Positions 15,501 through 52,170 of a DNA stretch of 64,000 nucleotides are shown here, piece by piece. Below the pieces are notes generated by a model. It was not told the origin of the DNA, searched no databases, and worked only from the letters and a program-made list of their open reading frames with translations. The stretch comes from Alphaproteobacteria bacterium (GTDB lineage: Bacteria; Pseudomonadota; Alphaproteobacteria; SP197), in NCBI GenBank assembly GCA_964291265.2, contig OZ219747.1, forward strand, positions 2,336,001 to 2,400,000. Direction: 5' to 3'. Numbering within the stretch: position 1 is the first letter of the stretch; each line of letters opens with the position of its first letter. Both the position numbers and the translations under genes were made by a program.

Positions 15501-15774
15501 AGACGAAATTCCGAACACCGCGGTGCATCCGATCGTCGTCGATGGAGATATCACGCCAGTTGTCCTGGACGGTTTTCAACAACGCATGGACATCAAGCGC
15601 CTTCTCCGCAACCCCGCCACGGGCTCGGCTGGCGAAGCGATGCCAGTCCGGCCCGTGTCGCTGCTCCATGTACCTGGTCACATACGGTTCAAGACCAGTG
15701 CGTAGCGCTTCGAGTCCCGCTTCGACCCTTTGCTTGGCCTCAAGAGCAGCCTGTCTTTCGCCATCCCTTGTCAT
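12532..15774 (-). CDS. DUF499-family ATPase with N-terminal Swt1-like HEPN domain
   Basis: RNAVAH (Rx4H), LPWREVCTPHADV, LQTNFGGGKTH, LILMDE, AYPLHPE, FQRTRGIL. Confidence 0.9.
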   Translation of the reverse strand: MTRDGERQAALEAKQRVEAGLEALRTGLEPYVTRYMEQRHGPDWHRFASRARGGVAEKALDVHALLKTVQDNWRDISIDDDRMHRGVRNFVFASMEARNAVAHFNGDLDPREALRHLDALGKVAEAVNASSQVRVIDRLYEEQRAVGTGRSDTRFPQLALDEAEVSHRLLPWREVCTPHADVLEAGVSDSKFAANLAQVDQGEGDEEYVDPAAFFRITYTTEGLSRVLTSTLARLAGTGGEPVIGLQTNFGGGKTHTMLALHHLAGAAEEGYKPEELAGLGAIFEAAGVETLGRVNRAVFVGTHKGAAEAMHTGDGREIRTLWGYLAWRLGGWSAFETIASSEAARTNPGSERLIPILRQAAPCLILMDEVVAFARQLRGLEYDAFHAFIQSLTETAAAVEHAVVIGSLPESGAEVGDEQGRDALQRLEKIFGRVQSAWTPASGTETYEIVRQRLFQPLDAAGEKARDDTVRAFRQFYRKHKADFPSEVLEKGYEDAMRRAYPLHPEVLARFSGDWSVLEKFQRTRGILKIMANVVHALWTGESATPLIMPAHLPFSEDKVRTALLEPLDRAFGPILQNEVDGDQSLSARIEVDRPRLARTRAVRSAARAVFFGTAPHAGAPRGGMSGTEIRLACAQPGDQISVFGEALEQVASRSAHLYRDGDSYWFSPLPTLNKLVDDRARDISDDEADQRIISMLRDDNRSREGFQRVHVAPDNPTDIEDQRAVALFILPPSRAHDRNVGSTSPAAIEAEAVLQRRGGSQRRYRNALVFVAANESDVTTTRNNARKELAWRSILEDSDMVANLTNAQTQDARTQAKRSHDSLQQGIRSTWVHILYPEHTANGGTGFSIQATRLTNRGSARTIAEAVWAKVTSDGTVLETLGPDNLVNELGKLWSEGDTHLRISTVRDWFATFVYLPRLRDDATLKEALEKLCGDAMSPYAYAADVDADGNYQGVREREVWLPDSYGDGLLVQRDAIQTPEPPPPPPPPPPPPPPIERKPTRFHATFDIDPDRAGLEVARIMDGLLAELTRPRGSSLSLTVELEGNVSDEGYPDDVVETVKANARDLKLDEESFGFEE

Positions 15775-15822
15775 GGGGCCTCTCCCGGTAGCAGCGTTGC
15801 GAACATCCGACAGTCACAGATG

Positions 15823-18717: not shown

Positions 18718-21700
18718 ATGTCTTGCCGTGTCGTCTGTTGTGCGGCCGCCGCGATGGAGGCGATGGTGATGGCCCGATTGACCTCGTTGAAGCCCGGTTC
18801 GGAACCGAACAGGGGAGCGGGATCGGGAACATAGAGAGGTTCCTGCGCCACGCCGTCGCGGACGAGAACCGCAGCCAGAATGAAGGTCTCGCCCGCATTG
18901 AGTGCCGTCAGGATCTCGTTGCGCGTCAGCGTGATGGTACGCGCATCGGCACGGCGCCCCTTGACTTCTATGAAGCGCAAACGGCCGGTCTCCGGCTCCC
19001 GGCTTTCGATGTCGTAGCCTCGATCTTCCGACGAGACATCGCGCGGTTCGTTGCCAAGACCGCGTTCGTGGGCCATGACCGCTTCCATCGCCATGGTCTC
19101 GGTTTCTGCGCGGGAAAGGGAATCATGCGTCGTATCCGGTGGATCCCCGCCGTCATCGTCGGTCGAGCCGTTGCCAAGCAGCCGCGCAGGCACGATGAGA
19201 GCGGCTCCGCAGATCTCCGGTGGCAGCGGTGCGATGTCGCGTTGGCGCTCGATGTCAGCAAGACGCCGCTGCAGTCGTTCGTAAAGTGTATCGACTTGCC
19301 GCCGGATGTTCGCGGAATTGAGTCGGGAGCGTTTGCCGGCGCATTCCTCCGCCTCGACCTCAAGCGCGCGGTGCGTGAGGTGGGTGATTTCCCGGCGCAT
19401 GCGGTCTTTCACCGCATCCTCGACCTTGTCGAGATCACCAAGGTGCTTCACCCTGACCTCGTCCAGGTGGCGTGGAACCAGATCGGAAATCGCGAGGGCA
19501 CGGGCACGGTCTTCGAGCGGGCCCTTGAGCCACGGATCGTCCAGCAGCGCCGCCACGACCTCCCGTTCGGCGCCATCCAACGGACGGCAGTCGAGGTAGG
19601 GAGCGGGGCCGCCTTCGGCGGCCCGTCCGTTCTCGTCCAGCCAGACGAACTGAAGGCGCTCGGAGACTATCTGCGGCTGACCATTGCGGACGGTGCGGCC
19701 ATCGCGGATCGCATGGCGAAGGGCAACAAGGACCCGCGGAGCGTCGTGCCTGTCCGCCACATCGACGAGCGCGGCGCCCCTGGTCAGTAGATCCCGGTAG
19801 CGTTCCAGGGTCAGGTCAATCAGAGCGTCGAGAAGAGGGTGGCCCGGCGCCACCAGGGCCGCCTGAGGCTGACCGGAGACATGTGTCTTGTCGAAGCAGA
19901 TGCGACGGTAGCGCTCGAGCACGGGGTCGCTGCGTCCGATGAGGCGATCACGGTCACGCAGCAACGGCGGGACGCGCATGATCTCGACGCGCCCCTTCTC
20001 CCGACGGCGCATTCGGCCGCCGGCCTCCGCCAACGCCACCTCGAAGAAGGAGCCGATGTGGTGAGGCTGGAGACGCGAAGCTGCAGCCCTCTCCATCGCA
20101 TCACGGACTCCACGTACGGTTGAAGGATCAAGACCCTCCCGGGTGAGCTTGTTGCGGGCCACGAGGTCGTTGATGTTGTCGATATCGACCTTGCCGTCGA
20201 TTGTCCGGAACAGATTGGCGCGAACCTCGGGCCTTTCGCCGTAGCGGATCGCTTCCATGAAGAGATCCTTCAGGGGTCTGTCCTCGAAGAGCTCACCGAG
20301 CACGTCATAGACCTTGCCGCCAAGCGCCTCCCGCGCGGTCTCCAGCTTCTCCAGGAGCCGCTGATAAACTGCGCCCTCGCGTGTCTCACTGGCCACGAGA
20401 TTCCACAGGTGGCACACCTCGGTCTGACCGATCCGGTGGATCCGGCCAAAACGCTGCTCCAAGCGGTTGGGATTCCATGGCAGATCGTAGTTGACCATCA
20501 GGTGACCTCCTCGCTGGAGGTTGACACCTTCGCCCGCAGCGTCGTTGGCCAGCAGGAAACGCAAGACGGGATCGTCGTTGAAGGCCGCAATGATGGCGCG
20601 CCGACGATCACGCGGAACACTGCCGTGGATGAGCTCGACACTTTCGGGGATGCCGGTGCGGTCGCGGATCCTGTTGGCCAGATAGGTCAGCGTGTCGCGG
20701 GCCTCAGCAAAGATGACGATCTTCCTTCGGGCGCCACCCTCCTGACCGAGCACCATCGGATCGTCGAGGATGCGATCAAGTTCACGCCACTTGGTGTCCT
20801 CGCCGGAGCGGCGCAGCGTGTGGGCCATCCCTTCGAGGCGCCGCAATTCCGCGATCTCCGCTTCGAGTTCGGTGATGGTCTGTGCGGCGGTGGCGCGATC
20901 AACCAGGCGGTCCTCGTGAACCTCCAGTTCCTCGCCCGTAGCCTCCTCGAAGTCGTTTTCGTCGAAGCTGAGCTCCGTCGCTACCGATGACAACCGGTCA
21001 CGCACCGGTGGGTTCTTCCGGCCGTGTCTTTCTTCCACAAGCCTCGCCTCCAACCGCGCCAGACGGCGCTTCATCGATTCATGAATGGCCGCAGGCGAGG
21101 ACGCCAGGCGGCGCTGCAGGATCTGCAAGGCAAAGCCGATGTTGTTGCGGCGCTTCGCGCCATCAACAGCCAGACGGTCCGCACGGTTCATCTCCTCGCG
21201 CACATAGCGGGTGACGGCCTCATAGAGTTCGGCCTCCCTTTCCGACAACTCGTATGAGACGGTATAGGCGCGGCGCTCCGGAAACAGAGGCCTGCTGTCG
21301 AACCGGTAGAGTTCTTCCTTGGTGAGCCGCCGCATCATGTCCGACGGATCAACCTTGCGCACACCCTGCCGGAAACGCCCCTCGAAACGGTCGGCATCGA
21401 GGAGACCCATGAAGAGCTGGAAATCCTCCTCCTTGCCGTTGTGCGGCGTTGCCGTCATCAACAGGAGATGGCGAGTCAGACGGCCTGCCAGGGAACCCAA
21501 TTGAAAGCGCTTGGTGTATCGAACCTCCTGGCCAAAGAAGGAGGCCGACATGCGATGGGCTTCATCGCACACGATCAGGTCCCAGGGCGGCGCCTTCTCG
21601 AGCTTTGCCCGGAGATCGTCGTTGCGAGCAAGCATGTCGAGGCGCGCGATCAACCGCTGCCCTTCGGCAAAGGGATTGCCGGTCACAGAGGTCTCCACTC

Positions 21701-22253
21701 GCTCACGGCTCACGATGTCGAACGCAAGATCGAACTTGTCACTGAGTTCATCCTGCCATTGTTCGACCAGGCTGCCGGGCGCGATGATGAGACAGCGCTC
21801 AAGGCTGCCCCTGAGCAGAAGCTCCTTGATGAGCAGTCCAGCCATGACCGTCTTGCCGGCCCCGGGATCGTCGGCCAGAAGAAAGCGCAGTGGCTGACGC
21901 TCCAGCATCGTGCCGTAGACCGCCGTCAACTGGTGAGGCAGGGGTTCAATGTGTGACGCATTGACCGCCGCGTAGGGATCAAAGAGGTGGGCAAGGCGAA
22001 TACGAAGCGCCTCCGCGGCAAGCCTGAAGAGATGCCCATCACCATCGAAGGCAAACCGTCTGGCGGGAACAACTTCGCTCAATCGGGGTTCGTCATCGCG
22101 ATAGAGGACCCGCTGGCCCAGACCGGCCGGCCCTTTCCAGGTTATCTCAACCGCATCGGTGCCATAGGCGCGCGTGGCGACAATCTCCACCGCTCCTTCA
22201 CCGACGAGGCCCGTGAGGCGGCTGCCCTGCACAATGTTCTCAAGCCTTATCAT
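18714..22253 (-). CDS. SNF2-family helicase with C-terminal DUF3883 nuclease domain
   Basis: LADDPGAGKT, DEAH, TATPH, GEGVNLQ, WNPNRLEQRFGRIHRIGQ, GYDIES...FIEVKGR; alternative GTG start 22268. Confidence 0.92.
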   Translation of the reverse strand: MIRLENIVQGSRLTGLVGEGAVEIVATRAYGTDAVEITWKGPAGLGQRVLYRDDEPRLSEVVPARRFAFDGDGHLFRLAAEALRIRLAHLFDPYAAVNASHIEPLPHQLTAVYGTMLERQPLRFLLADDPGAGKTVMAGLLIKELLLRGSLERCLIIAPGSLVEQWQDELSDKFDLAFDIVSRERVETSVTGNPFAEGQRLIARLDMLARNDDLRAKLEKAPPWDLIVCDEAHRMSASFFGQEVRYTKRFQLGSLAGRLTRHLLLMTATPHNGKEEDFQLFMGLLDADRFEGRFRQGVRKVDPSDMMRRLTKEELYRFDSRPLFPERRAYTVSYELSEREAELYEAVTRYVREEMNRADRLAVDGAKRRNNIGFALQILQRRLASSPAAIHESMKRRLARLEARLVEERHGRKNPPVRDRLSSVATELSFDENDFEEATGEELEVHEDRLVDRATAAQTITELEAEIAELRRLEGMAHTLRRSGEDTKWRELDRILDDPMVLGQEGGARRKIVIFAEARDTLTYLANRIRDRTGIPESVELIHGSVPRDRRRAIIAAFNDDPVLRFLLANDAAGEGVNLQRGGHLMVNYDLPWNPNRLEQRFGRIHRIGQTEVCHLWNLVASETREGAVYQRLLEKLETAREALGGKVYDVLGELFEDRPLKDLFMEAIRYGERPEVRANLFRTIDGKVDIDNINDLVARNKLTREGLDPSTVRGVRDAMERAAASRLQPHHIGSFFEVALAEAGGRMRRREKGRVEIMRVPPLLRDRDRLIGRSDPVLERYRRICFDKTHVSGQPQAALVAPGHPLLDALIDLTLERYRDLLTRGAALVDVADRHDAPRVLVALRHAIRDGRTVRNGQPQIVSERLQFVWLDENGRAAEGGPAPYLDCRPLDGAEREVVAALLDDPWLKGPLEDRARALAISDLVPRHLDEVRVKHLGDLDKVEDAVKDRMRREITHLTHRALEVEAEECAGKRSRLNSANIRRQVDTLYERLQRRLADIERQRDIAPLPPEICGAALIVPARLLGNGSTDDDGGDPPDTTHDSLSRAETETMAMEAVMAHERGLGNEPRDVSSEDRGYDIESREPETGRLRFIEVKGRRADARTITLTRNEILTALNAGETFILAAVLVRDGVAQEPLYVPDPAPLFGSEPGFNEVNRAITIASIAAAAQQTTRQDI

Positions 22254-22302
22254 GTCGAAGGAATACACCGCTTTACGTGAATGGCGCTATTGAAAGATTG
22301 TA

Positions 22303-22413: not shown

Positions 22414-24829
22414 CTGCCGAGTAATGACAATTACGACGTGACGTCAAGGGTCTGAATGTGTTGCAAGGGTTGCCGCTGTCCGGCCCGGAAGCCGACTTGA
22501 TGGCCAAGAACGGCGCTGGTCAGGCGGGTCGCGCCGTGCCACATGATCTGGTGTCCGGGCTCGGGATCATGCTTGCGATCCTGGTACCCGCCGAGATGGG
22601 CCACCAGGCGGACGGCATCCTCGAGGCGGTCGGGCGGCGTCATGCGCTTCTCGGCGGCGTAGTCGCGCAGGAAGCTCAGCTCTTGATCGGTGAACATCAG
22701 CTCGGGCTCACAGTCGGGAACCTGCCGTCCGAGCAGGGTCATGACCATGATGCGCCAGGCGATGACGGCGTTGATGGCGATGGCCCGCTGCAGTCGTTCT
22801 GCGGTCCGGAACAGCAGGAACTCGGTGCGACAGCCTGACTTGAGGACGCGGAAGAAGTCTTCGACCTTCCATCTCTGGAGGTAGAAGCCGACCATCCTGG
22901 CGGCATCCTCGGCGCTGCGCACCTTGAGCGTGGTGAGCAGGAACCACTGCACCGGGTTCTCGCCCTCGGGAGGATCGGTTTCGATGATGTGGACACCGGA
23001 AAGGGCGAGCGGCGCCCGGCCTTCGAGGGTGGAGGGCAAGGTCACGCGGCGGAACCGCAGTGCGCACTGAGCCACGCGTTTGCGTCGGGCCGCACGCGCC
23101 TTCGTTCGGCTCGCCTTCGGACGCTCGCTCAGGCCGTCGACCTCGACGGTGACGCCGCCGTCGGGCGGGCCTGCGCTCAAGGTTGCAAACAGCTTTGCGC
23201 GCCCCTTGCCGAGAACCCGGTCATGTCGGGCTCGGACCAGAAGCCCGACCCGTGGGTTGAGACGTTGATGATCGAACAGCTCGAAGAAGTCCGCTTCCCG
23301 ATCACAGACCGAGATCACGCGCGTCGTGCTTGCGACGTCGCGAACCGCTTCGTCGATGTCCTTGAAGCCTTCCATCCAGCGTCGGCTCTTCAACCGCTCC
23401 TCGGCCGCCGGGGAGCGCTGCTTCACCGCATCGAACCCCAGACGCAGAACCCCGAGCGGCAACCCCGTCTCGCTCACCGCCAGCGTCGCATGCAGGTGCA
23501 AACCCCGGGCCGACGAGGAGGTCTGGTTCTTGCCGATGACCTGAAGACCTTCGCATCCCGGCCGCCGGGAGAAATTGAGGTCGCTCCCGTCCTGGATCGC
23601 CAGCACGGTCGTTTGACCCTGGATGCGCCGGATCGTGCGCTCCCGATGCGGAGCAAGAATGTTCGCCACCGTCACCGCACTCTCCACCGGCTTCTCGATC
23701 AGGCGGTAGAAAGCACTGATCGCCGTGTTGTCGGCATCCGTGCTCGCGTGAATCTTGGAACCGGGACAGGAGGCCAGAAGAGCCGCACTCTTCACCAGGC
23801 GTGCCGACAGTCGCTTGTCACCCAAGGGAGCCCCTCCGAATTCGTTCGCCGCCCACACCGCACCATCCAGACCGTCTCCGGGTCCCAGCGACCAGGCAGG
23901 GTCGACCGGACCCACTCCCAGCTTGCGTCGCCAGCGCCGATCCAGACCGCGCATCCAGACCGTCTTGACGGTCTTGGCAGCGCGATGGTGACGATCCTGA
24001 CGACCCCGACCCTTCGTCCGCCCCGCACACACGAAGTTCGCAGCCCGCAGGCAGGTCCCGGCATAGCCCTCGTCCGCATAGGTTTCCACCACCAGGGGAC
24101 GGAACCCATACCGGGCCTCGAAATCCCTCGGTAGGCGCCGGAGAAGTCGCCCCAGAACATGGCTCGCCAGGTGCCGGCACCGCACCCGAAGCAGAAACCG
24201 GCTCAGACAGACCACCCGCTGGAGATGATCCCGCCGCTGGGACGGCGTCCATGCCATCCAGCGGTCGCGGGCCTCGCCCGTCAACGCCGCCGCCGAGATC
24301 CCGACCGCACCCAGGATCCCGTGCTCCGACGTCACAAGATAGCGCACCTGACAGCCGGCAAACGTCGTCATGCCATGAGGATGCTCGCGCGCCATCAACG
24401 TGTTCCATACCGTTCGCTCCGAAACCTCGGTCACCACCGACAGTTGCACCTGCGCAATCCCGGACAGACGGGACGGCACCCCGACCGGCAGCGGCACTTC
24501 TCCGTCAAGAAGACGCGGAGAGTTGTCCACGGCAGCAGCCTGCGGTGCCGGAAGCCGGATCTCCGGATACGACGATGCCAACGTGGTCAGGGCCTTCAGA
24601 CAACTCGACAGCTGCCAACGCCCGGCCGCGTCCCGGAACGAAAACTCTTCGCATACCCGGCGGCTCGCAGCCCGACGGCCAGAGTGCTGCTCCTGCGACA
24701 GGATGGCAGCAACGCGCGCCCGGGCCCCGTCCTCGCGCAGAGTGTGAAGAATGCTGGATTGTGCCATCATGGCGGCAAGCTAGCGCAGACCGAGCGGCAC
24801 GTCCAGACCTAATTTTCATGACATGGCAG
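22414..24829 (-). mobile_element. IS4-family (IS50-like) insertion sequence
   Basis: TIRs CTGCCGAGTAATGACAATT / CTGCCATGTCATGAAAATT (15/19); flanking repeat CCCTAGCC at 22406-22413 and 24830-24837. Confidence 0.85.
22431..24770 (-). CDS. IS4-family transposase fused to an N-terminal DUF4338-like domain
   Basis: WAANEFGGAPLGDKRL, IQDGS, VCDREAD, YLQRWKVEDFFRVLKSGC; N-terminal RDRWMAW...LSRFL...HLASHVL...VVETY. Confidence 0.88.
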   Translation of the reverse strand: MMAQSSILHTLREDGARARVAAILSQEQHSGRRAASRRVCEEFSFRDAAGRWQLSSCLKALTTLASSYPEIRLPAPQAAAVDNSPRLLDGEVPLPVGVPSRLSGIAQVQLSVVTEVSERTVWNTLMAREHPHGMTTFAGCQVRYLVTSEHGILGAVGISAAALTGEARDRWMAWTPSQRRDHLQRVVCLSRFLLRVRCRHLASHVLGRLLRRLPRDFEARYGFRPLVVETYADEGYAGTCLRAANFVCAGRTKGRGRQDRHHRAAKTVKTVWMRGLDRRWRRKLGVGPVDPAWSLGPGDGLDGAVWAANEFGGAPLGDKRLSARLVKSAALLASCPGSKIHASTDADNTAISAFYRLIEKPVESAVTVANILAPHRERTIRRIQGQTTVLAIQDGSDLNFSRRPGCEGLQVIGKNQTSSSARGLHLHATLAVSETGLPLGVLRLGFDAVKQRSPAAEERLKSRRWMEGFKDIDEAVRDVASTTRVISVCDREADFFELFDHQRLNPRVGLLVRARHDRVLGKGRAKLFATLSAGPPDGGVTVEVDGLSERPKASRTKARAARRKRVAQCALRFRRVTLPSTLEGRAPLALSGVHIIETDPPEGENPVQWFLLTTLKVRSAEDAARMVGFYLQRWKVEDFFRVLKSGCRTEFLLFRTAERLQRAIAINAVIAWRIMVMTLLGRQVPDCEPELMFTDQELSFLRDYAAEKRMTPPDRLEDAVRLVAHLGGYQDRKHDPEPGHQIMWHGATRLTSAVLGHQVGFRAGQRQPLQHIQTLDVTS

Positions 24830-24835
24830 CCCTAG

Positions 24836-26619
24836 CCCGGATTTGTCACCAAGTTTCCTATTGATGGGGATGGGGTTTGTGATATATGCACAAGACCAAT
24901 GAGTTACATACACCAAGGAGCCCATCCACATGGCGACACAGTGTTCAGCACAACAACTGGAGTTTGAAGGTCTCGGACGGCGGCAGATTGTGGCTAATTT
25001 CGATGGTGGCCGCATGACCTCCGACGGTGGTGCGCTTCTGTTGCGGGAAGCAGACAGGCTTTTCAACGTGACGGAGCGTGTCGCTGGCGCTTTTGTTGAT
25101 TATCGTGATCCCAGTCGCATTGAACACGATGTGACGACACTGGTGGCGCAGCGCATCATCGCTTTGGCTCTGGGTTACGAGGGTCTCAACGATCATGACC
25201 GTCTGCGTGACGACCCTGCTCTGGCCCTGGCTTGCGGGATCGACGATGTGGAGGGAGAGAGACGGGTTCGCGAGCGGGACCGTGGACATGTGCTGGCGGC
25301 CTCGAGCACGCTGAACCGCCTGGAACTCGGCGATCCGCATGAGGCGAGCCTGGACCGCTACAAGAAGATCGTGGCCGATCACGAAGCACTGGACTGTCTT
25401 CTTGTGGACCTGTTTCTGGAGAGCCATGCGGAACCGCCCAAGGAGATTGTTCTGGATCTTGATGCCACCGACGATCCGGTGCATGGCGACCAGGAGGGCA
25501 AGTACTTCCACGGCTATGACGACCACCATGGCTTCCTGCCGCTGTTCGTCGTCTGCGGCGAGCACATCCTGCGCTGCCGGTTGCGGACGGCCGACCATGG
25601 CGCGGCGGATGGCTCGGTGGATGAGCTGTCACGGATCGTTGAGCAGATCCGCGGCACGTGGCCCCGGACACGGATCGTGGTGCGGGGGGATGCCGACTTC
25701 GGCACGGACGACATCATGGTCTGGTGCGAGGACCATGGTGTCGACTATGTCTTTGGATAGGGTCAGAATCCTCGCTTGAACAGCATGGTCACGAAGGCAC
25801 TCAACAAGTCGAGGCGGCGTTGTCTGGTGTCCGGCAAGCCATCCAGACGGTATCGGGATCTGCGGTATCGCACGCAGAAGTCATGGTCCCGCGAGCGGCG
25901 AGTGGTGGCCAAGGCGGAATGGCTACCGGGACCGCGCGGCAAGAACGCTCGTTACATTGTGACGAGCATCTCCAGGAAGGAGGTCGGCGCTCGGGAACTC
26001 TATGAGCAGTTGTACTGTGCTCGGGGAGACATGGAGAACCGGATCAAGGATCAGCAGTTGTGGCTGTTCTCCGATCGCACGTCGTGCCATGTCATGCGGG
26101 CCAACCAGCTGCGCATGTACTTCTCGGCCTTTGCCGGCGCCCTCGTCGACATCCTGCGCCGTGTCGGCCTGCACGGCACCGAGTGTGCCCGCTGGCGCGT
26201 CGACACCATACGCTCCCGGTTGTTCAAGCTTGCCGGCAGGGTGACGAAGACGGTGCGCCGGCTTCGCCTCTCCTTTGCCTCGATCTTCCCCTTGCAGGAG
26301 GTGTTCGCCCGCACTCTCGTCAACCTGCGTGCCGCGGCCCAGGCGCCGCCGCCGGGATAGCTTGTGCTGCATCCCATCACAGTCTGATCACAGCGTCTCC
26401 CGAAGGCGTCGCCAGGGGTGTGCCTGGCGCATGTCCCGGCATAGACACGAACGCCAAAAAACGGCTTTCGGCTCCCTTGGCCTGCCAAAATGAGCCGAAA
26501 AACTATCCCAAATGCGACACGATTCCGCCAACAGCGCAATCAAAGTGAACCTTGTCTGCGCCCGAGGCTGAAGATTACGCCATCATTCCACTATCATTCC
26601 CCTTGGTGACGGAACCGGG
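24836..26619 (+). mobile_element. IS1380-family insertion sequence
   Basis: TIRs CCCGGATTTGTCACCAAG / CCCGGTTCCGTCACCAAG; CTAG on both flanks (24832-35, 26620-23). Confidence 0.88.
24930..26360 (+). pseudogene. IS1380 transposase with in-frame TAG at 25758-25760
   Basis: FDGGRMTSDGG, LDLDATDD, RGDADF, YCARGDMENRIKD; both ORFs share one frame. Confidence 0.88.
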
Positions 26620-26885: not shown

Positions 26886-28088
26886 GTGATGCCAAGAATT
26901 AGTCGTGGAAAAGGACGAGAGCGACGACTGCGTGAGAGACTCTTTGACGCAGGGAACAATAGATGCCCAATATGTCTTTCCGTCTTTAATCGATCAGATG
27001 TATCGAATGGAACAAGCGTGACGCTTGAACACGCGCCACCCAAGTCATTAGGAGGAAATCCGATATGTTTGACCTGCAAGGCTTGCAACAACAAGACAAG
27101 CAAAGCAGACCATCACGCATTCTTGTCTGCAAAAGCTAGAGATGAGTGGGCGGGAGGCCAAGGATCTCCCATTGACGTGAATTTTCTGGGCCATAAGAGA
27201 AAATACAGGTTTATCCCCAAAAATTCAAACGCTCCGTTTCCGGCACAGAAACACCTGTTTCAAAGCGGCATCATTAAACTAGATGCGTTACCATCGAAAT
27301 TGGACTTGTGTGCATATGAAGGAATCAGTTTCAAGATTCCACACCGCGACGACTTTGAATTTGTGAGCATGATTAAATCCGCCTATCTAATGGTTTTCGC
27401 TCTAATGGGTACACATGGATATCAATTCGCTGAAAATGTTGGAGTTCGTTTAATCAGAGAACAAATAATGAACCCTGAAGAGAAAATACTTAAAGGCGGT
27501 TTTGTCGGTGAAATGAAAGTTGATTCCGAGGACTTCCGCAAAATTGATAGGACAATAGTTTTCTTGCTCAATACAAGCCCCTATCCAATTTGGATAGTGC
27601 CGATGTCGCATGGTAGGATAGTTGTTTTGCCATCTGGCAACGCAGAACCAATCAATGAGTTAGTGATGAGTCCGAAACGAGTTGATGTTTCACTTGGCAA
27701 TTTGACTGGGTGGATATCGAGAAAGTTCAGTGATTCATCTGCAATTGGAGGCCCTATCAGAGAGTGGGGGAGCGACTTGCAAAAAACATCACTGGTGGGT
27801 ACTTTTGCCGGACCTATTCCCACAAGTAGGGAGCATTGGCGGTTTATTGTTGTTTTTTGTCAGGCGCAAAGGTATGTGGCATTGCCATTTTCTCCAATGG
27901 ACTGTCTTGACGAGGACTGTTCTGATGATTTAGATTTCATCAATGTAGTTGATATGTTTGGCGAGCCGGAGGTTAGGGGGAGAAAATTGGATAGGAGTCA
28001 ACTCACAACTACCGGCTTTTCTCATGCGAGAGAAATTACTATGGTCCGCAAGACAGGGAATGATGAACAAGGCTTTAAGGAGGATTAA
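26886..28088 (+). CDS. HNH-endonuclease-domain protein, low-GC cargo
   Basis: CPIC...TLEHAPPKSLGG...CLTCKACNN; AGGAG RBS; visibly AT-richer than its flanks. Confidence 0.75.
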   Translation: MMPRISRGKGRERRLRERLFDAGNNRCPICLSVFNRSDVSNGTSVTLEHAPPKSLGGNPICLTCKACNNKTSKADHHAFLSAKARDEWAGGQGSPIDVNFLGHKRKYRFIPKNSNAPFPAQKHLFQSGIIKLDALPSKLDLCAYEGISFKIPHRDDFEFVSMIKSAYLMVFALMGTHGYQFAENVGVRLIREQIMNPEEKILKGGFVGEMKVDSEDFRKIDRTIVFLLNTSPYPIWIVPMSHGRIVVLPSGNAEPINELVMSPKRVDVSLGNLTGWISRKFSDSSAIGGPIREWGSDLQKTSLVGTFAGPIPTSREHWRFIVVFCQAQRYVALPFSPMDCLDEDCSDDLDFINVVDMFGEPEVRGRKLDRSQLTTTGFSHAREITMVRKTGNDEQGFKED

Positions 28089-28347: not shown

Positions 28348-29505
28348 TCAGGATTCCGTGCCCGATGCCATGATCTGTGTCATGACGTTCCCGACCCGCT
28401 CCGCCGCCGCCTCGACATCCCTGTCCGCAACGTGGGCATAGCGCAGGGTCATTGACACTTGGCGGTGACCGAGGAGTTTCGCCACTGTCGGAAGTGGCAC
28501 ACCATTCAGGACAGCCTGGCTGGCAAAGTTGTGTCGCAGGTCATGCAGACGCACATCCTCGATGCCGGCCCGTTTGCGGAGGGTAATCCACATCTGATCG
28601 ACGCTCGATATGGGTGCGGTTGGATCGCAGGGCGACGGAAAGACATGATCGCTGCCCGCCCTGGGCTGACGAGCAATGATCCGGCGGGCCTTGCTGTTGA
28701 GGTAGACTTTCCGTGGTCCGGTCTTGCTGTCGGCAAGATCGAGCGTGTCGGTTCCGACTTCGGACCACCTGAGGGTTCGGATTTCGCTGCAACGGCATCC
28801 CGTATAGAAGAGCAGGCGAATGATGTCTGCCTGAGCCGATCGCCCCGGGCGTTCGGCGACCAACCGGTCCAGTTCGGCATGCAGGCGACGGGCCTCGTCC
28901 CGGGACAGGAACCGGTTGAACCTGCGTTGCGGGTTCCGGCGAATTCCGTTTGCTGGATTGGTCTCGAGATGACCATGAACCGCCGCGTGGTTGAGAATTT
29001 GGCGCAAGGTGTCAAGAGTCCTGTTAGCACCACCGGGCGCCGTCGCGCTGTAGCGGTCGAACCAGGCCATCACCTCCTTGCGTGTGATCCGGTCCAGCGG
29101 CATGTCGCCGAAGGTCGGCAACAGTTGATGTGTTAGTACGCTGTCGGTGCTGCGCCGGGTGTTGGGCTTGAGACGACCGAAACACTCGGAACGCCAGACA
29201 CCTGCGACAAAGTCGCCGAAGAGAGGTACGGGAACCAGGGGAGTGTCCACCAGCGGTTCCATGTCGCCGGACTGGATGGCGAGACACCGGGAGCGCGCTT
29301 CCTCGACAGACATGCTTGTCACGGGACCCAGCGTCCGGCGTTTCGAGGAACCGTGCCGGGAGTTCAGGACAACGAACGACTTGTGGCCGGAAGACCGCAC
29401 CCTGACGCCAAGGCCCATAATCCGCGTGTCCCATACGGTATACTCGACGGGCATCGTCGCAAGGCGCGCAATGGTGCGATCACTCAACCGCATCTTTCGT
29501 TTCAT
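28348..29505 (-). CDS. Tyrosine recombinase/integrase 2 with arm-binding N-terminal domain
   Basis: WDTRIMGLGVRV; TGCR, DSKTG, HDLRH, LLGH, TLRY. Confidence 0.95.
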   Translation of the reverse strand: MKRKMRLSDRTIARLATMPVEYTVWDTRIMGLGVRVRSSGHKSFVVLNSRHGSSKRRTLGPVTSMSVEEARSRCLAIQSGDMEPLVDTPLVPVPLFGDFVAGVWRSECFGRLKPNTRRSTDSVLTHQLLPTFGDMPLDRITRKEVMAWFDRYSATAPGGANRTLDTLRQILNHAAVHGHLETNPANGIRRNPQRRFNRFLSRDEARRLHAELDRLVAERPGRSAQADIIRLLFYTGCRCSEIRTLRWSEVGTDTLDLADSKTGPRKVYLNSKARRIIARQPRAGSDHVFPSPCDPTAPISSVDQMWITLRKRAGIEDVRLHDLRHNFASQAVLNGVPLPTVAKLLGHRQVSMTLRYAHVADRDVEAAAERVGNVMTQIMASGTES

Positions 29506-30638
29506 ACCTCGACCCTCCCACCCAGGGCCGAAACAAGGGACTCGGCTACCTCGTGAACCGTGTCATCGGCAAGATGCGTGTACTTGAGCGTGGTCGCTGG
29601 ATCAGTGTGGCCCAGAAGCTTGCCTATGGTGGGGATCGTCTCGCCATGAGCGAGTGCTATCGAGGCGTAGGTGTGACGCAAGTCATGGCAGCGAACATCC
29701 GCGATCCCCGCCTCCGAGCGCACATTGAGCCAGAAGCGGTGGAGCCCACCCGCCGAAAGGTGGCGACCTCCACGGGGAGACGGGAACATCCAGCGGCCCC
29801 TTCGGGGCAGCCCGTCAAGGATCCGGCGTGCCGCTGATGACAGCCAGACCGTGCGCGGGCCCGTCTTGCTGTCACGCAAGTAGAGCTTGCCCTCACGGTA
29901 GTCCGACCACCGGAGACCGAGAACCTCGCTCTTGCGACATCCGGTCAGAAGCAGCAATCGCACGATCGCGGCCAACAGGGAGCTCTTTTCGCGCTTGTCG
30001 TTGAGAACTCGGCCCAAGCGCCTGATCTCGTCGTGGCTGAGGAACCTCTCGCGATGGCGTCGGCGGTAGCGCTTGATGCCTTTGCAAGGATTGGAGCCTT
30101 CCGGACGATAGCCGTAGACCTCGGCCTGCCGCATGATGACGGAAAGAACCGGCGCTGAACGGTCCGCGGCAACGGGCGTGGCATGAAGTGAAGCGAACCA
30201 GCGCTGAACGTCGTGTCGCGTGATGTCCCTTATGGCACGCCCCTTGAAACACGGCAGGATCTGGTTCCTGAGGTAGCCGAGATTGACCTCCAGGGTGCGT
30301 GGCTTCCAGTGCCTCCGGTATCGCTTGAAGACCTCGTCTGCGACATCCTCGAACAGGATGGCTTCGGTCTCGACAGGCAAGGCTCCGTCAGTCGTGGAGC
30401 GTGACGCGAGAAGGGATGTTGCCTTGTTCCGGGCGCACTCCAGAGCCATGGCCCCGGCGTCGCCTATGGGGTGCCAGACCCTCTTGCCGTCGACCTGGCT
30501 GTGAAGGAAGTACCGCTTGCGGCCTGAGGGGAGGATACGCACACCGAAACCCCGGATGACGGTATCCCGAACGTCGAGGGTCTTCTTGTCCGGTTTGAGG
30601 GTATCGACCCGTCGTTGCGTGAGGTGTCTCTTCGGCAT
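29502..30638 (-). CDS. Tyrosine recombinase/integrase 1 with arm-binding N-terminal domain
   Basis: RDTVIRGFGVRI; TGCR, DSKTG, HDLRH, LLGH, TLKY; starts ~130 bp from the right junction. Confidence 0.95.
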   Translation of the reverse strand: MPKRHLTQRRVDTLKPDKKTLDVRDTVIRGFGVRILPSGRKRYFLHSQVDGKRVWHPIGDAGAMALECARNKATSLLASRSTTDGALPVETEAILFEDVADEVFKRYRRHWKPRTLEVNLGYLRNQILPCFKGRAIRDITRHDVQRWFASLHATPVAADRSAPVLSVIMRQAEVYGYRPEGSNPCKGIKRYRRRHRERFLSHDEIRRLGRVLNDKREKSSLLAAIVRLLLLTGCRKSEVLGLRWSDYREGKLYLRDSKTGPRTVWLSSAARRILDGLPRRGRWMFPSPRGGRHLSAGGLHRFWLNVRSEAGIADVRCHDLRHTYASIALAHGETIPTIGKLLGHTDPATTLKYTHLADDTVHEVAESLVSALGGRVEV

Positions 30639-30767
30639 GGCATTCTCCCCGATTCCTGTTGCACCGGGGGGTACGGAAACGACATGAACCCGCTTCCCCG
30701 GCGAAACTTCGTGAGAGAGAACGCTTATTGTTTCAGTTGGTTACAGTTCCGTTTAGCACCACAGGTG

Positions 30768-30779
30768 CGCGGTAGGTGT
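30768..30779 (+). repeat. Right junction direct repeat, preceded by hairpin GCACC-ACA-GGTGC
   Basis: Identical to 2082-2093; hairpin at 30756-30768. Confidence 0.9.
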
Positions 30780-31497
30780 GCAGCTCGTCGAGGACCAGAA
30801 ACCGGAGTCCCACAGCATGTTCGCGAATCGCCTTGTCGGTCTCGAGGAACCGCGTCATGACCAGCTCGAGCATGACGTAGTTGGTCAGCAGAATATCGGG
30901 AGGGTTCTTCGCGATCAGCTCGCGCTCCTCCTGGGTTTCCTGTCCTGTATAACGGGCGAAGGTGACCGGCTCGCCGCCTTCGCCGTAACCAAGCCGCAGA
31001 TACTTCTCCAGTTCCTCGCGCTGGCTGTTGCAGAGCGCATTCATCGGATAGACGACGATGGCCGTGATGCCGCGATAGATGTCGTCGGCGCGTTTCCGCC
31101 GCAACACGTCGTCGACGATGGGGATGAAGTAGGCGAGCGACTTGCCCGAGCCCGTGCCGGTGGTCAGGACATAGCTCTCGCCGCGTCCGGCAATTCCGAT
31201 GGCGTCTGTCTGGTGCCGGTGCAGCAGGAGGCGCTCGCCGAACGTGTCATCTGGACGCTTGAGCCGGAAGACTCTCGCGCATTCCGGGTCGAGTGTGCCG
31301 TCAGCGACCAGGTCGTCGATGTATCCGCCCCGCTCGAAGTTAGGATTGAGCTGGATGAGCGGGGTCGGCCAGAAGTGGCCTGCGGCATAGGCTGCATCGA
31401 CTACGCGGGAGATGTCCTCGGCGCGGATCCTGGAGAAGCTTCGGGAAAACCGCTCGTATTCGGCGACGAGCTCTTCCCGGAAGGCGAAGACATCCAT
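30769..31497 (-). pseudogene. N-terminal fragment (243 aa) of the split DEAD/DEAH helicase
   Basis: MDVFAFREEL, HQ motif, TTGTGSGKS, YPMNAL, TNYVMLE, LVLDELHTYR then element sequence. Confidence 0.9.
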
Positions 31498-32528
31498 CAG
31501 CGGCTCCCCGCCGCGGCGGCATTGGCATGCGCCTCGATCACGGCGCACCGCTCCATCAGGGCATCGAACGATTCGGTGTCGTCCAGCAGCATGCCATCGG
31601 CGAGCATCCGGGCGTAGTCATCGGCGAGTACCGCACGCGCGGCGCCGGAGGGGACGAGTTGGAGGTCACCGGAAACCGCGACTTCGTAATCAATCCTCGA
31701 GCCGGTCGCGTCGTTCTCTGTGAAGAACATCGCCTTGTGGCGGGCAACCGACAGGGCGAGGGCGCGATCGGCGAGCGCGTTTGCCGCAATCCCCGCCTCG
31801 TCAAGACGCGCGAGATCGTGCCAATGCCTCGACAGACGCTCGCCGCGCTGCCGCTCCTGGCGGCAGAAGACATGGATGGCGGTCGCTTTCTCCCAGAACG
31901 TGCGCTCCGCCAGCATGACGGCGGGGCTCGCCTCGGGAAACGCAAGGTCCGGCAAATGCGCAGCTGCGTCGCAAACGACCGGATGAATTGTGTGCGGCTC
32001 GCCGGTCGATCGGGCGCCGAACTCGACCATGACCTCGGGGCGCACCAACCCGGTTTCCTCGAACAGTGGCTCGTAGGCGATGTAAAGGCGATCCCCGTCG
32101 ACACGAACTGCTGCGTTGAATCCGGTGCGCGCGAGCCCGGCCTCGACAAGCGGGTGCGCCTGATCCCGAACCCATCCAGTCAGGCGGGGGCGGATCGCCC
32201 TCGTCCAGCGCTTCTCCTGGCTGCGCGTGGGCGGAAGCGCCTCGTCGCCGGCGCCGGAAACCAGGTCGGACGCGAAGGCGCGAATGTCGTAGGTGATGTC
32301 GACATCTTCGGAGAACCGGCGGATCGCCCGCCATGCCTTCGACAGCGAGGTGCCGCCCTTGAAGGTCAGGTGTGGGGCGAATGGGGCCTCGAACAGCACC
32401 GCGAGGGTGGCGACGACCCAAATGTCCTTTTCGAGAAAATGCACCCGGTACTGTCCTCTTTCCTGAGCAACCCTCAGCGCATGGAGGCGGTCGCTGACCG
32501 AAAGGCTCTGGAACAGCGTCTCAGCCAT
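31497..32528 (-). CDS. abiEii: AbiEii/AbiGii nucleotidyltransferase toxin (type IV TA)
   Basis: EKDIWV, FKGGTSLSKA, RRFSEDVDI, ERTFWEK, SRHWHD. Confidence 0.9.
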   Translation of the reverse strand: MAETLFQSLSVSDRLHALRVAQERGQYRVHFLEKDIWVVATLAVLFEAPFAPHLTFKGGTSLSKAWRAIRRFSEDVDITYDIRAFASDLVSGAGDEALPPTRSQEKRWTRAIRPRLTGWVRDQAHPLVEAGLARTGFNAAVRVDGDRLYIAYEPLFEETGLVRPEVMVEFGARSTGEPHTIHPVVCDAAAHLPDLAFPEASPAVMLAERTFWEKATAIHVFCRQERQRGERLSRHWHDLARLDEAGIAANALADRALALSVARHKAMFFTENDATGSRIDYEVAVSGDLQLVPSGAARAVLADDYARMLADGMLLDDTESFDALMERCAVIEAHANAAAAGSR

Positions 32529-33117
32529 GTGCGAGGCGTGCGCTCAGCGGTTCGGCCATCCAGAAGGGCATGACGGCCCTCGCGGCCGCAAGCTCATCCC
32601 GGTCCACCTCGGAGAGCGTCGGCAGAACCACTTCGAGGCCGTCCTCGACCTCCTCGGGGCCGAGCCATGCCAGGGCGCGGATGACCTCGCCGGCCTTGCG
32701 GTGTGGCGCCGCCAGTTGCCAACGCGGCGCGTGGCGCAATTCCACGATGGATGACCCGAAGTGGAGATGTCGGCTGGGACCGGAGGTAAGGTAGACCGCA
32801 CGGACCGGATTCTGCGTGGTCAGGCGCAGGCGATTGGCCGCGGCGCCGCCGCACGGCACGATGGTCTCGCCCCAGAGTGCCGACAGCGCGGCGAGCGCCT
32901 TTCCCGTGCTCGGCGCACACGTTCCGAACCGGGTCTCGACCGGGCGCATGTAGACGCCCTGGCAGATGCGCATGAGACGGCCCGAGCGCGCGAGGCGGGA
33001 CAACGCCTGGTCGACCGCCGCCCGGTGGCCGAGGTGCAACAGGGCGCCCGGACACAGCGGCGTGGCTTCCGGGCGAGCCTTGGCGTACTCCATGATGCGC
33101 TTGGGAAGGCCCCGCAT
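32521..33117 (-). CDS. abiEi: AbiEi-type antitoxin (DUF6088-like)
   Basis: VDQALSRL...RICQGVY, AANRLRLTTQNP; overlaps toxin start. Confidence 0.85.
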   Translation of the reverse strand: MRGLPKRIMEYAKARPEATPLCPGALLHLGHRAAVDQALSRLARSGRLMRICQGVYMRPVETRFGTCAPSTGKALAALSALWGETIVPCGGAAANRLRLTTQNPVRAVYLTSGPSRHLHFGSSIVELRHAPRWQLAAPHRKAGEVIRALAWLGPEEVEDGLEVVLPTLSEVDRDELAAARAVMPFWMAEPLSARLAHG

Positions 33118-33194
33118 CGGTCGATGCCTCCTGTTCGTTTGTCAGAAATCTAGCGGCAATGCTGCCGAATTGCAACGCTGGAAATACAGTTTCC

Positions 33195-33475
33195 GCGAAT
33201 GTCACAGGTGATATCAACGTCTTCGGAGAAGCGGCGGACAGCTCGCCATGCCTTCGACAACGAGGTGCTGCCCTTGAAGGTCAGGTGCCCGGCGAACGGG
33301 GCCTCGAACAGCACTGCGAGGGTGGCGACGACGCAGATGTCCTTCTCGAGCATATGGGCCCGGCATTGTCCTCTTTCCTGAGCGGCCTCAGCGCATGGAG
33401 GCGGTCGCTGGCCGAAAGGCTCTGGAACAGCGTCTCAGCCATGCACGAGACGTGCGCTCAACGGTTCGGCCATCC
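33195..33475 (-). pseudogene. Degenerate partial copy of the abiEi end / abiEii start
   Basis: Aligns by eye to ~32280-32561; frameshifted; GG changed to GS in FKGSTSLSKA. Confidence 0.85.
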
Positions 33476-33700
33476 CGATTGCCGCCTGCATCGTGCCGTG
33501 CTCCTTCGACAGGTGAATGGAACGGGGGCAGCGCCCCCTCCCTCCGCAGCGCCGACCGCCGCCCCTTCACGGCCAGACCTCTCCTCCTGCCGGTGGGAGG
33601 CGCGTGGAGGGAGACGCGGCAGGACGGCCGTGCAACGGACAGGGCCGCGGCGTGAGTTGAAAAGCCACACCGGGCAACATAAAAGGAGGCATGAAGGCGA

Positions 33701-36610: not shown

Positions 36611-36869
36611 ACCCATTGGACCGGCCCTATTGGGTCCAATGGGGGGCATTGGAAGACAAGCAGAAGTCCTCACCTCGTGGAGAGACACTTTCGGACATCT
36701 CTGATTGAACAGCTGGAGGCTGGAGGCCAAGCCGCGCAGGATCAACAAACCGACGACACCAAAAACAGCACCCACCGCAACCAACGTCAACACAGACTCA
36801 GACCTGACGAGGTACCTGGGCAGTTACTTCGAATGTACCGGGGTGTTGTGATAGAAAGTCGGCATACAC

Positions 36870-37519
36870 ATGGAACTGCCGACAGATCATCACATGCCTG
36901 CGTATCGCGCCGAATCTCAGAGAGAGACAGCCGTCAGACTTCTTGGCGAGCACGGCATCATGCGGCTGTCGGAGATGAAGGCGGCCGGAGTCCATTATCA
37001 GACACTGACCCGGATGGTTGAAGATGGCTCCGTTCTGCGTGTCGGCCGAGGCCTCTACCAGCTTCACAGCGCCGACTACTCCCTGACCCACAGCCTTGCA
37101 GAGGTGGCCAAGGCCGTGCCAAAGGGGTGATCTGCCTCATCTCGGCTCTCCAGTTCCACGAACTCACGCTTCAGGCCCCGCCCCATGTCTGGGTCGCCAT
37201 CGGGCGCAAGGAGCGCAAACCTCGCATCAGCTATCCACCGGTCCGAGCCATGCGGTTCGGCGAAAGGGCCATGTCGGTTGGCGTCGAACGCCATGTGATC
37301 GACAAGGTCGAAACCCCGATCTTCGATCCGGCCAAGACCATCGTCGACTGCTTTCGCTATCGCAAGGAGATCGGCATCGACATCGCCTTCGAAGGGCTCC
37401 GCAATGGGATCCGCAGACGCAAGGCGCATCCCGACCGGATCGCTGCCTATGCCAGGGATCTGCATATCTGGTCGGTTCTCAAGCCCTATCTTGACGCGGC
37501 GGTGGCCGATGAAAAATAA
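36870..37519 (+). pseudogene. abiEi: Second AbiEi antitoxin, frameshift at ~37124-37127
   Basis: RVGRGLY...AVPKG|VICLISALQFHELT...AKTIVDCFRYR. Confidence 0.85.
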
Positions 37520-37958
37520 GTGCAAGAACGTCGCCCAGTCGGTGCGCGATCGGCTGCGGACGGTTACCGTCCGACTGCGCCTGAACTACAACCTCGTTCT
37601 GACTCGCTACGCGCTCGAACGCTTGCTATATCGCCTGAGCGTGTCGCCTCAACGGAATCGGTTCGCGCTCAAAGGCGCCATGCTGTTCGTCGTCTGGACG
37701 GCGGACATCATTCGCCCGACCCAGGATCTCGACCTGCTTGGTTTCGGCGATTCTGACGTCGATGGGCTACGAGATGCGTTCCGCGACATCATGGGCACGC
37801 CTGTTGCCAACGACGGTGTCGCATTCGACCTTGACTCGGTGCGCGCCGAACCGATCCGGGCGAAGCAACCATACGACGGCGTTCGAGTCAGCGCCCGGTC
37901 ATTCATCGGTACGGCGCGCGTGCCGATTCAGATCGACATCGGTTTTGGCTACGCCGTC
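37509..37958 (+). pseudogene. abiEii: Second AbiEii toxin, 3'-truncated
   Basis: ERLLYRLS, FALKGAML, RPTQDLDL, QIDIGFG; similarity then stops. Confidence 0.85.
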
Positions 37959-38559
37959 AAGGCCCTGGAGGGCCTGGGCAAAGCGGATGGCCTCGTGCAG
38001 CGAGAAGCGCGTGTTCGCGTCGGCGAAGATCATCTCGTCCCGCAGCAGGTCATCACCCGTTCGATGTCGTCGTCGACGGCGCCGCCCCCGACCCTGAGCT
38101 GGAAGTGGCGGTAGCCGTCATCGCGGCAGGCGCGCATCGCAGGGACGCTGTCCGGGGGGGATGTCGGCATCGAACAGCACGGAGCGGCACCGGCTCGGGC
38201 CAGCGGCCACCGGGGAGGTGAGCACAAGGAGCTGCCCGGTCGCCTGGACCATGATGTCCCGGAGCGCGGTGTCGAGGGGCGCCTTCAGGTTGTTGATGGC
38301 TGCGGTCCCACTCGCGGTTGATCTTCTCGACGTGGAAGGGATCGGCGCCGATGAAACCCCGGGCGACGCTCGGGATGCCCGCCAAGCGTTTGCCAAAACG
38401 CGGGCGCATGGTGCGTTCCGATCGGGCAGGTCCCGCGTTGGTGTCGACGGGCCCGACGACGGACGTGTCGACACGTGGTGCGAAGCCGCTGCCTGATCTG
38501 TACCCGCCGGTCCTCGGCGGCGTCGTGACGCCGTGGACGCGCACCCGGGTGATCTTCAT
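37956..38559 (-). pseudogene. Mandelate racemase/enolase-superfamily gene, frameshifted and truncated
   Basis: Fragments MKITRVRV, IGADPF, LKAPLDTALRDI, GYRHFQLRVGG, IFADANTRFSLHEAIRFA in changing frames. Confidence 0.7.
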
Positions 38560-49489: not shown

Positions 49490-49702
49490 GCCGCCGCCCC
49501 TGGCGATGACATGGCCGGGGGCGAATCCCAACTCTCAGGCAGAGGAATTTTATCCACCGGCCAGGTCGACAACACCGTGAAGAGCCCGATAGTAGGCGAA
49601 CACGCTACAAGATGATGTCACATCCTGGAATGTTACCCCCAGCATATTGGGAATTGCTGGTGCCAAGGCGGGCTGCTCAAGACATTGAAATTTCGTAACT
49701 AC

Positions 49703-51846: not shown

Positions 51847-52170
51847 TATCTCCGACGCAAACCGCCCCGATGGCCAGCATGTAGAGTGCCCCTCCTACAA
51901 TGTCAAGCGCATATCTCCAGAGGATTGGAAAGGCAGCCAACCGCTGTGGATGATTGCATCATCACGGGGACAAAACCTGGTCATACAAGGCCGGAACGTG
52001 GAGCTGAAGCCGAAGATCGATCCGCTTCTTGTCAGTCGGAACACGCACATCCGATCATCGGCAGCGAGCAAGTGAAGGCGGCAAGAGAAAATGCCGGATC
52101 CGAACCCGTCAGGAAAAACGATCCGTCATCAGTAGGGGGTGAGTAGTTACGAAATTTCGAGCTTCCTGAT

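Follow-up and report, generated by a model that had tools for sequence, protein, structure and literature searches.

The window examined here, meaning the whole 64,000-nt stretch of DNA, contains a 28.7-kb insertion whose right end raises the question of whether one short sequence can serve a mobile element both as its point of entry into the chromosome and as its origin of transfer. Transfer origins (oriT) and attachment sites are normally separate modules. A first-pass annotation had noted that the right boundary looks like the oriT of a MOBF relaxase and had proposed that attP and oriT may coincide, so that the relaxase could excise or insert the element with or without the integrases.

Boundaries and gene content of the element

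The insertion is bounded by 12-bp direct repeats (CGCGGTAGGTGT) at 2082-2093 and 30768-30779, the longest sequence shared by both junction regions, and the element starts with AAGCAC at 2094. Removal of the 28.7-kb element in silico restored the reading frame of a DEAH helicase through DELHTYRGRQG, and contigs of the empty allele joined at 30768 in three of three public runs, all from one study. The ends and their flanks comprise the following features:

910-2081, minus strand: interrupted host DruE-like DEAH helicase gene, 3' part
2082-2093, plus strand: left direct repeat, attL core, without hairpin (repeat comparison)
2148-2155, plus strand: subterminal TCTCTCAC, inverted partner of 30711-30718, candidate arm-type integrase site
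30711-30718, plus strand: subterminal GTGAGAGA, candidate arm-type integrase site
30768-30779, plus strand: right direct repeat, attR core (repeat comparison)
30780-31497, minus strand: interrupted host DruE-like DEAH helicase gene, 5' part

The inverted 8-bp motif thus listed lies about 50 nt inside either end. A similar pyrimidine motif is found about 50 nt inside most left ends of sister elements, which also carry a GAGAG-like motif at the position equivalent to 30711-30718. The gene order from the right end is intA, intB, IS pieces, HmaABC, a coiled-coil ORF, a MobF relaxase-helicase and three NikA-like genes:

29502-30638, minus strand: IntA, tyrosine recombinase with arm-binding domain and catalytic R-H-R-H-Y
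28348-29505, minus strand: IntB, second tyrosine recombinase, ~37% identical to IntA and overlapping its stop
12532-22268, minus strand: cargo, the HmaA, HmaB, HmaC anti-phage system (E 0, 0, 3e-234)
10357-11133, minus strand: coiled-coil ORF directly upstream of the relaxase, common to close sister elements
3601-10350, minus strand: MobF relaxase-helicase of 2249 aa, with YY-X4-YY and H-X10-HTH
2463-2801, 2798-3091 and 3082-3564, plus strand: three tandem NikA/MobC-like ribbon-helix-helix (RHH) genes

Both integrases have an arm-binding domain and intact catalytic residues. The relaxase scores 265 bits against NF041492 (cut-off 100), and its nearest solved relative is TrwC of R388 (E 7e-47). 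The RHH genes match PF21983 with E values of 4e-4, 1e-6 and 0.012, of which the second alone passes the cut-off; they adjoin the left end and would be the first genes after the predicted nick. The coiled-coil ORF has no coupling-protein match. With an integrase at one end, direct repeats, an empty site that restores the host gene, and a relaxase but no mating-pair system, the window element has the features of an IME with a tyrosine recombinase.

Several further features lie in and around the element. A 779-aa ORF (22431-24770, minus strand) joins a DruA-like domain to a Tn5/IS4-type transposase, a DDE_Tnp_1_4 transposase is split into two ORFs (24930-26360, plus strand), and a 400-aa ORF adjoining intB (26886-28088, plus strand) has a low GC content of 44% and a weak HNH match. 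The element is inserted in a defence island, with an AbiEii/AbiEi toxin-antitoxin pair at 31497-33478, its partial 915-bp-spaced duplication, and a second AbiEii fragment at 37404-38114. An IS66-family element with perfect 23-bp terminal inverted repeats occupies 49687-52158. In the same genome, a sister element (L130, G000:C2:3662055-3680041) is inserted in a repeated sequence of which eight empty copies exist, each differing from the occupied core by one base; its empty form with the full 13-bp overlap was found in three of three runs.

A conserved hairpin and GTGT around a free spacer at the right end

On the plus strand, the right end consists of GCACC (30756-30760), a loop ACA (30761-30763), GGTGC (30764-30768) and GCGGTAGGTGT (30769-30779), which we divided as follows:

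30755-30769, plus strand: conserved terminal hairpin AGCACC-ACA-GGTGCG, on the element side of attR, R388 IR2-like
30770-30775, plus strand: variable 6-nt spacer CGGTAG, identical to the host target sequence, the probable strand-exchange overlap
30776-30779, plus strand: conserved GTGT, with a predicted nick 3' of 30779 (A2094 would follow in the circle)

That the hairpin and the sequence following it end exactly at the right boundary, and that the hairpin is absent from the left copy, as first reported, was confirmed in the sequence and by repeat comparison; the left copy (2082-2093) lacks the GCACC/GGTGC stem. The hairpin-spacer-GTGT pattern, which was itself derived from the observation, has a single occurrence in the window, against an expectation of 0.01, and one of 100 shuffles reached that count. 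Folding of a 56-nt stretch gave a structure no more stable than shuffles (z -0.47), so folding energy is uninformative and the case for the hairpin rests on conservation.

The pattern AGCACC-N3/4-GGTGCG-N5-8-GTGT matched 85 times in 14 of 41 related genomes, all within the genus, and the reversed control matched twice. The genome of the window carries nine near-complete IntA copies (at least 56% identity), and motif counts indicate up to 15-16 elements per genome, with element sizes of ~6-52 kb. An IntA-anchored census of genus loci, 80 metagenome loci and the window's own genome comprised 124 upstream regions, of which 114 contained the motif under the script's rule. By eye, the ten misses included four full motifs with a 4-nt loop, one ending in GTGA, one compensated variant, and four without the motif. 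At one intA copy (G000:C2:4032227), the hairpin is replaced by an end similar to that of the IS66-family element at 49687-52158.

The 114 ends contained 21 loop sequences and 102 distinct spacers of 5 nt (n = 1), 6 nt (n = 38), 7 nt (n = 69) or 8 nt (n = 6). The stem was GCACC/GGTGC in 107 ends; a compensated change from C-G to T-A was present in three, and twice more in one census miss (L214), and the stem was broken in four, the distal arm being affected in three of these. The proposed conservation of the hairpin at the ends of relatives is therefore borne out, with stem and GTGT fixed and loop and spacer free. The host base after GTGT was a purine at 94 of the 114 right ends and a pyrimidine at 20. 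At the left ends, the element base after GTGT was A or G in 36 of 36, which are related and hence not independent. Six of nine whole elements checked had no relaxase, yet their hairpin was perfect.

Comparison with the nic sites of R388 and F/R100

The R388 nic is GCGCACCGAAAGGTGCGTATTGTCT/ATAG (PMC4176350) and that of F/R100 ends in GTGT (PMC3074121); the nic sequences that the first-pass annotation had given for R388 and F agree with these sources. The GCACC-loop-GGTGCG hairpin is nearly identical to R388 IR2, and the GTGT end is that of F/R100. As in a MOBF oriT, an inverted repeat with a free loop and a conserved proximal arm lies directly 5' of the predicted nick, the last bases conform to G-T-(C/G)-T, a purine follows, and the element encodes a TrwC-related MOBF relaxase with catalytic tyrosines and a histidine triad. 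In the map of requirements for TrwC, the loop is free, the proximal arm essential and the distal arm tolerant, with a purine at +1 (PMC4176350). The constraint pattern at loop, arms and +1 purine fits this map and therefore counts for the MOBF nic reading.

Two features differ. The spacer of characterized sites is 4 nt, fixed and read by the protein, with T18 and T21 near invariant, whereas here it is free and mostly 6-8 nt (5-8 nt over all ends). TrwC requires nucleotides 17-25 to be nearly invariant (PMC4176350), and a free spacer 2-4 nt longer argues against nicking at this site. F TraI, for its part, joins substrates with altered spacer bases if the hairpin is present (PMC3074121). The second difference concerns polarity. 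Relaxase genes typically lie on the lagging side (PMC11541004), that is, the hairpin side, whereas here the predicted nick has the RHH and relaxase genes on its 3', leading side; the caveat about polarity attached to the original proposal is real. The window element also differs from R388 and F in having no coupling protein or mating channel, and in that its site doubles as a chromosome junction.

Relatives on MOBF plasmids

Using IntA as the query, we retrieved paired integrases on plasmids. In a quick tree, IntA and IntB were each sister to a Shewanella/Vibrio/Photobacterium/Aliivibrio pair (SH-aLRT 95 and 96), sphingomonad pairs came next, and tRNA-linked integrases stood apart; the Shewanella IntA as query found one locus only in our genome collection. 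F/R100-type sites lie upstream of intA in the gammaproteobacterial relatives, in the same place and polarity as the motif in the window. The Shewanella site is GCGTGGGGTGT, and that of pPHDD1 is GCAAAACTTGTTTTGCGTGGGGTGT, which is nearly the F hairpin oligonucleotide listed in PMC3074121. Among 17 paired-integrase loci, 12 have a hairpin-GTGT or F-type nic upstream in the same polarity, where 0.56 would be expected, and none of six outgroup loci has one; the rule was written after the sequences had been seen, and the matches include close kin (three Shewanella, two Photobacterium). The five misses were V. europaeus, N. humi, pTAV1, G008 and Leisingera, the last with its site on the reverse strand. 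The hairpin sequences are wholly different between groups of relatives.

On pSBAL17501, pPHDD1 and V. crassostreae p1, an intA-intB-cargo block lies downstream of traI between two direct nic copies, the second just past traI, which implies that the plasmid oriT received integrases and cargo as one block. No second nic copy was found in the stretches retrieved for L152, L153, L154, L156, L157, L159, L160 and L162; among gammaproteobacterial loci beyond the three plasmids, this applies to four.

Conventional nic sites also occur within the genus. At three of 15 other relaxase loci, the same hairpin is followed by R388's 4-nt spacer, 0.5-1.8 kb downstream and in the canonical polarity (GCACC/GGTGC or GCATC/GATGC, G, 4 nt, GTGT), with no integrase in 14 kb. 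Among the remaining loci, one has a weak 4-bp stem and 11 have no motif within 3.5 kb downstream, including L270-L273, which cover both genomes with a TraC. The fixed 4-nt spacer is found in sister loci (L127, L275-L277) and in the plasmid relatives. TGCGT-N-GTGT lies upstream of the mob operon in three of four integrase-free plasmids whose relaxases are 40-42% identical; the strict hairpin scan had missed the 4-bp stems of these control plasmids, and the nic-like motifs came from a relaxed scan.

The nic sites of the relatives are the decisive evidence, on which we conclude that the right end either descends from a MOBF nic or mimics one. The proposed coincidence of attP with a MOBF nic is accordingly well supported by comparison, and nicking there is a prediction.

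Some relatives deserve mention in their own right. In L166 (NZ_AP025478.1, 14.5-38.5 kb), the block between the nic copies encodes type I restriction and contains a darobactin gene cluster, cargo that would lead the strand predicted to be transferred. A relaxase-free 26.5-kb element (L164, NZ_CP010956.1), which carries hairpin-GTACGGTGT, interrupts an efflux-adaptor gene in frame, and its ssb is the first gene after the predicted nick, oriented toward it. On the Leisingera plasmid (L163:8724), hairpin-GTGAGGTGT lies between mobF and the integrase pair and points toward intA, the reverse of the others. Two further GCGTGAAGTGT repeats ~220 bp apart follow the traI-side nic copy in L150 (14237-14677), and L156 is similar. 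Rather than an attL, the site at 954 kb in genome G020 could be a native oriT. The plasmid pPDL2 is unrelated (PMC3516476).

Spacer identity and choice of target

We located 36 left ends by similarity to confirmed left ends. The six spacer bases were identical between the left end and the nearest right end in 31 of 36, differed at one position in three, and at three or five positions in two, counts that retain some bias toward matches as the references were drawn from exact pairs. Of the latter two left ends, one has its match in a different right end, on the far side of a probable inversion. For about half of the 52 right ends studied in other genomes, the DNA retrieved contained no left end. 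A spacer TGGAAG is common to a left and a right end 2.5 Mb apart on opposite strands (L069, G013:C1:4672384; L072, G013:C1:2136524), which suggests that part of the chromosome was inverted through two elements.

When recombination of this type depends on homology across an overlap of 6-7 bp, the two ends come to match, and a spacer that is specific to the insertion and the same at both ends suggests homology sensing of the kind seen in tyrosine recombinases. One alternative is that the relaxase alone inserts and excises the element by TrwC-like strand transfer at nic-like targets, the integrases being dispensable. TrwC does integrate DNA into 17-bp targets and tolerates acceptor mismatches (PMC3264647), and every target here ends in GTGT. 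However, such strand transfer would put the spacer of the element at the right end and that of the host at the left end, and the two would not have to agree as they do. In Vibrio europaeus, host sequence stands on the right and the nic on the left: the nic GTGGTGTGT follows host codons A-D-L-P at the left end, and at the right end the hairpin is followed by host L-V-V-D-H-F-R-Y of an aldehyde dehydrogenase, placing the crossover at the hairpin side, ~8 nt 5' of the nick. One spacer mismatch in the window's own genome has the host-like allele on the right, against relaxase-only transfer; of two other cases, one is polymorphic and hence ambiguous, and one has no homologue. The end is also always tied to the integrase pair. 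We therefore regard insertion by the relaxase without the integrases, which the first-pass annotation had allowed, as highly improbable, given the spacer identity, the V. europaeus crossover and the dependence of targets on the integrase end described below.

In all 25 elements compared, the length of the spacer goes with the IntA clade, and equally with the relaxase type. One element of the same genome (936-953 kb) combines a 7-nt spacer and the corresponding integrase type with a relaxase type otherwise paired with 6 nt; it breaks the tie between integrase and relaxase, so spacer length goes with the integrase. Target choice thus appears to go with the integrase end rather than with the relaxase type. 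That element (G000:C2:936301-953035) and another at 2129346-2142636 have ~96%-identical integrase regions and occupy two copies of the same target, with different relaxase types and different left ends.

Integrase pairs that are closest in sequence and inserted at different targets showed spacer differences of 0 (99.1% identical), 1 (98.5%) and 0 (92.8%). The mean for close pairs was 2.0 (six pairs, one mis-parsed) vs 3.6, with an exception of 98.0%-identical integrases that differ at 3 of 5 spacer positions. A pure target-copy duplication, as by a transposase, was considered because almost every spacer is unique; it seems rather unlikely, since in most of the closest integrase pairs the spacers agree or nearly agree although the targets differ. 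The free 6-7 nt plus GTGT and the use of DNA homology suggest that the target of the integrase pair might be set by editing attP.

No circle joint (hairpin-core-left-end) was present among the joints listed from three runs, in contigs only, and four metagenome flanks that passed a crude circle filter appear to be host coding sequence.

The relaxase, alternative nick sites and conjugation helpers

If the relaxase did not nick at the junction, it might do so at 11134-11583, as the original proposal had allowed. That region contains no hairpin-nic motif, and only ~100 nt of it are shared, with five of 39 other relaxase upstream regions. No alternative hairpin-nic was shared among 40 relaxase upstream regions, and none was found in the element interior. 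A 39-nt inverted match (82%) links 11279-11317, upstream of the relaxase operon and in the part common to close sister elements, to 36763-36801 outside the element.

The relaxase keeps the equivalents of TrwC R81, S89, P91 and Q159, which contact G17 and T23, and has no equivalents of N182, D183, V186, R190, D216 and N218, which contact G17, T18 and T21. All 15 element relaxases that were aligned retain the catalytic motifs, and they likewise have none of the spacer-reading residues of TrwC. The relaxases of L168 and L169 also have no N182 equivalent despite a conventional nic, so the missing residues are a weak argument. Several relaxase ORFs are truncated.

Conjugation helpers are rare. The window's own genome had no match to a coupling protein or VirB4, apart from one 88-residue fragment. 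Among 23 genomes of the genus, VirB4 was found in none, F-type TraC (a candidate F-type helper) in two and a strong coupling protein in three.

These observations bear on the possibility that the oriT is vestigial, i.e., that the end descends from a MOBF nic and is now a binding and crossover site for IntA/IntB only, with the relaxase nicking an unrecognized site elsewhere or degenerating. The free and long spacer, the polarity inverted relative to the relaxase, the scarcity of helpers and the truncated relaxase ORFs would all suit it, and the hairpins kept in relaxase-free elements fit an integrase site equally well. Yet the lack of a shared alternative hairpin-nic in the regions searched, the compensated stem changes, which suit a single-stranded hairpin, the +1 purine in all left ends, the RHH genes beside the junction and the intact catalytic motifs argue against it, and we consider a vestigial oriT rather unlikely.

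Proposed mechanism

We favour as probable the reading that recombination is the work of IntA and IntB and that the relaxase, after excision, nicks the circle at that same site, which would make attP also oriT. To judge from the comparisons above, one short sequence is likely to be both the integrases' crossover point and the predicted transfer origin. IntA and IntB would integrate and excise the element by crossover in the 6-7 nt that separate the hairpin from GTGT; in the circle, the predicted relaxase nick comes directly after GTGT. The family may have begun as hitchhikers that inserted into the nic of MOBF plasmids and rebuilt a hairpin-nic at their own end. Within the genus, the elements would have come to carry their own relaxase, the spacer would have grown to 6-8 nt and drifted, and each lineage would find chromosomal targets that match its spacer plus GTGT. 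After nicking at GTGT^R, the circle might be mobilized where one of the rare F-type helpers is present, or undergo rolling-circle copying within the cell. Against this reading stand the longer, free spacer, the polarity, the hairpins of relaxase-free elements and the scarcity of helpers, all set out above.

A variant would make copying by the relaxase and pasting by the integrases the main route. A nick at the left copy would displace the plus strand through the element, with termination at the right hairpin, making a circle while the donor site stays filled; the integrases would then insert the circle. The geometry is suitable, with a start that has no hairpin beside the RHH genes, and a hairpin at the end that would favour joining, as for F TraI. 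This route would also suit a genus that has almost no conjugation machinery and yet carries up to 15-16 elements in one genome, and resetting from the right copy would explain the fast spacer drift seen in the 98%-identical integrases. However, the pyrimidine after GTGT at 20 of 114 right ends would be poorly processed by TrwC (PMC4176350), ordinary excision would suffice given intact integrases and inverted arm-like motifs at both ends, and no circle appeared among the joints listed from contigs. As the main route, it seems to us unlikely.

More broadly, and tentatively, the MOBF nick site may be the attachment core of a new proteobacterial family of two-integrase elements, whose members in this genus would combine a spacer-blind relaxase, rolling-circle copy-out and paste-in by IntA/IntB; this is possible, though short of what we would call probable. 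If true, insertion at nic on F-like plasmids would rebuild a second nic, the cargo would be the first DNA transferred, and the cargo block could be peeled off alone by the plasmid's TraI. Integration would then be naturally re-targetable, to any site matching the 6-7-nt spacer plus GTGT.

Comparison with known systems

With attachment site and oriT fused, as they appear to be here, a single 25-nt site would link excision and integration to nicking. Such a fusion would account for the parasitism of MOBF plasmids of marine Gammaproteobacteria and sphingomonads by an unrecognized integrase pair, would put cargo for restriction, toxin-antitoxin functions or antibiotic biosynthesis first in line for transfer, and would give exact oriT predictions for those plasmids. 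We found no description of paired integrases with a MOBF nic as attachment site in open-access main texts; further literature used for comparison comprised PMC4814116 and bioRxiv 10.1101/2022.06.02.494495.

Multi-integrase elements of the SE, GInt, RIT and Tn554 groups likewise have at least two tyrosine recombinase genes at one end, with short crossover cores and many insertion sites (PMC10214605). The window element is nevertheless neither an SE nor a GInt or Tn554. SEs and GInts depend on a set of four genes (intA, tfp, intB, srap), whereas here two adjacent integrases are conserved, with IntA overlapping IntB and no gene between them; and SEs and Tn554 leave a 6-bp donor footprint, whereas here both ends usually have the same core (31 of 36). 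The words oriT and relaxase are absent from the SE paper (PMC10214605). MTnPi1-3 of Prevotella are also multi-integrase elements but prefer AT-rich sites (PMC5704250). The oriT-only islands and PIMEs are integrated and mimic a helper's oriT, with or without a relaxase; the PIMEs have IncP-like oriTs, and the relevant passages describe no overlap of oriT and attachment site and no paired integrase (bioRxiv 10.64898/2026.01.13.699239, 10.64898/2026.01.12.698999).

In its way of working the family resembles, without belonging to, the IME_oriT of Streptococcus and Staphylococcus, tyrosine-integrase mobilizable elements that insert into the stem-loop/nic of an oriT (PMC7563843, PMC5704250). They share with the present family a relaxase of their own, insertion at an oriT nic and the occasional use of chromosomal sites. 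Insertion into an oriT, in our case a MOBF oriT, is seen in L150, L161 and L166, whereas the window element sits in a helicase gene and not in the oriT of a conjugative element. The IME_oriT use MobT oriTs in Firmicutes with a Rep_trans-type relaxase, and the passages concerned do not describe attP as the IME's own oriT (PMC7563843, PMC5704250). The elements described here have a MobF relaxase instead of MobT/Rep_trans, act on MOBF sites in Proteobacteria and carry a two-gene integrase module; their own end rebuilds the hairpin-nic, and the core differs from one insertion to the next in this genus.
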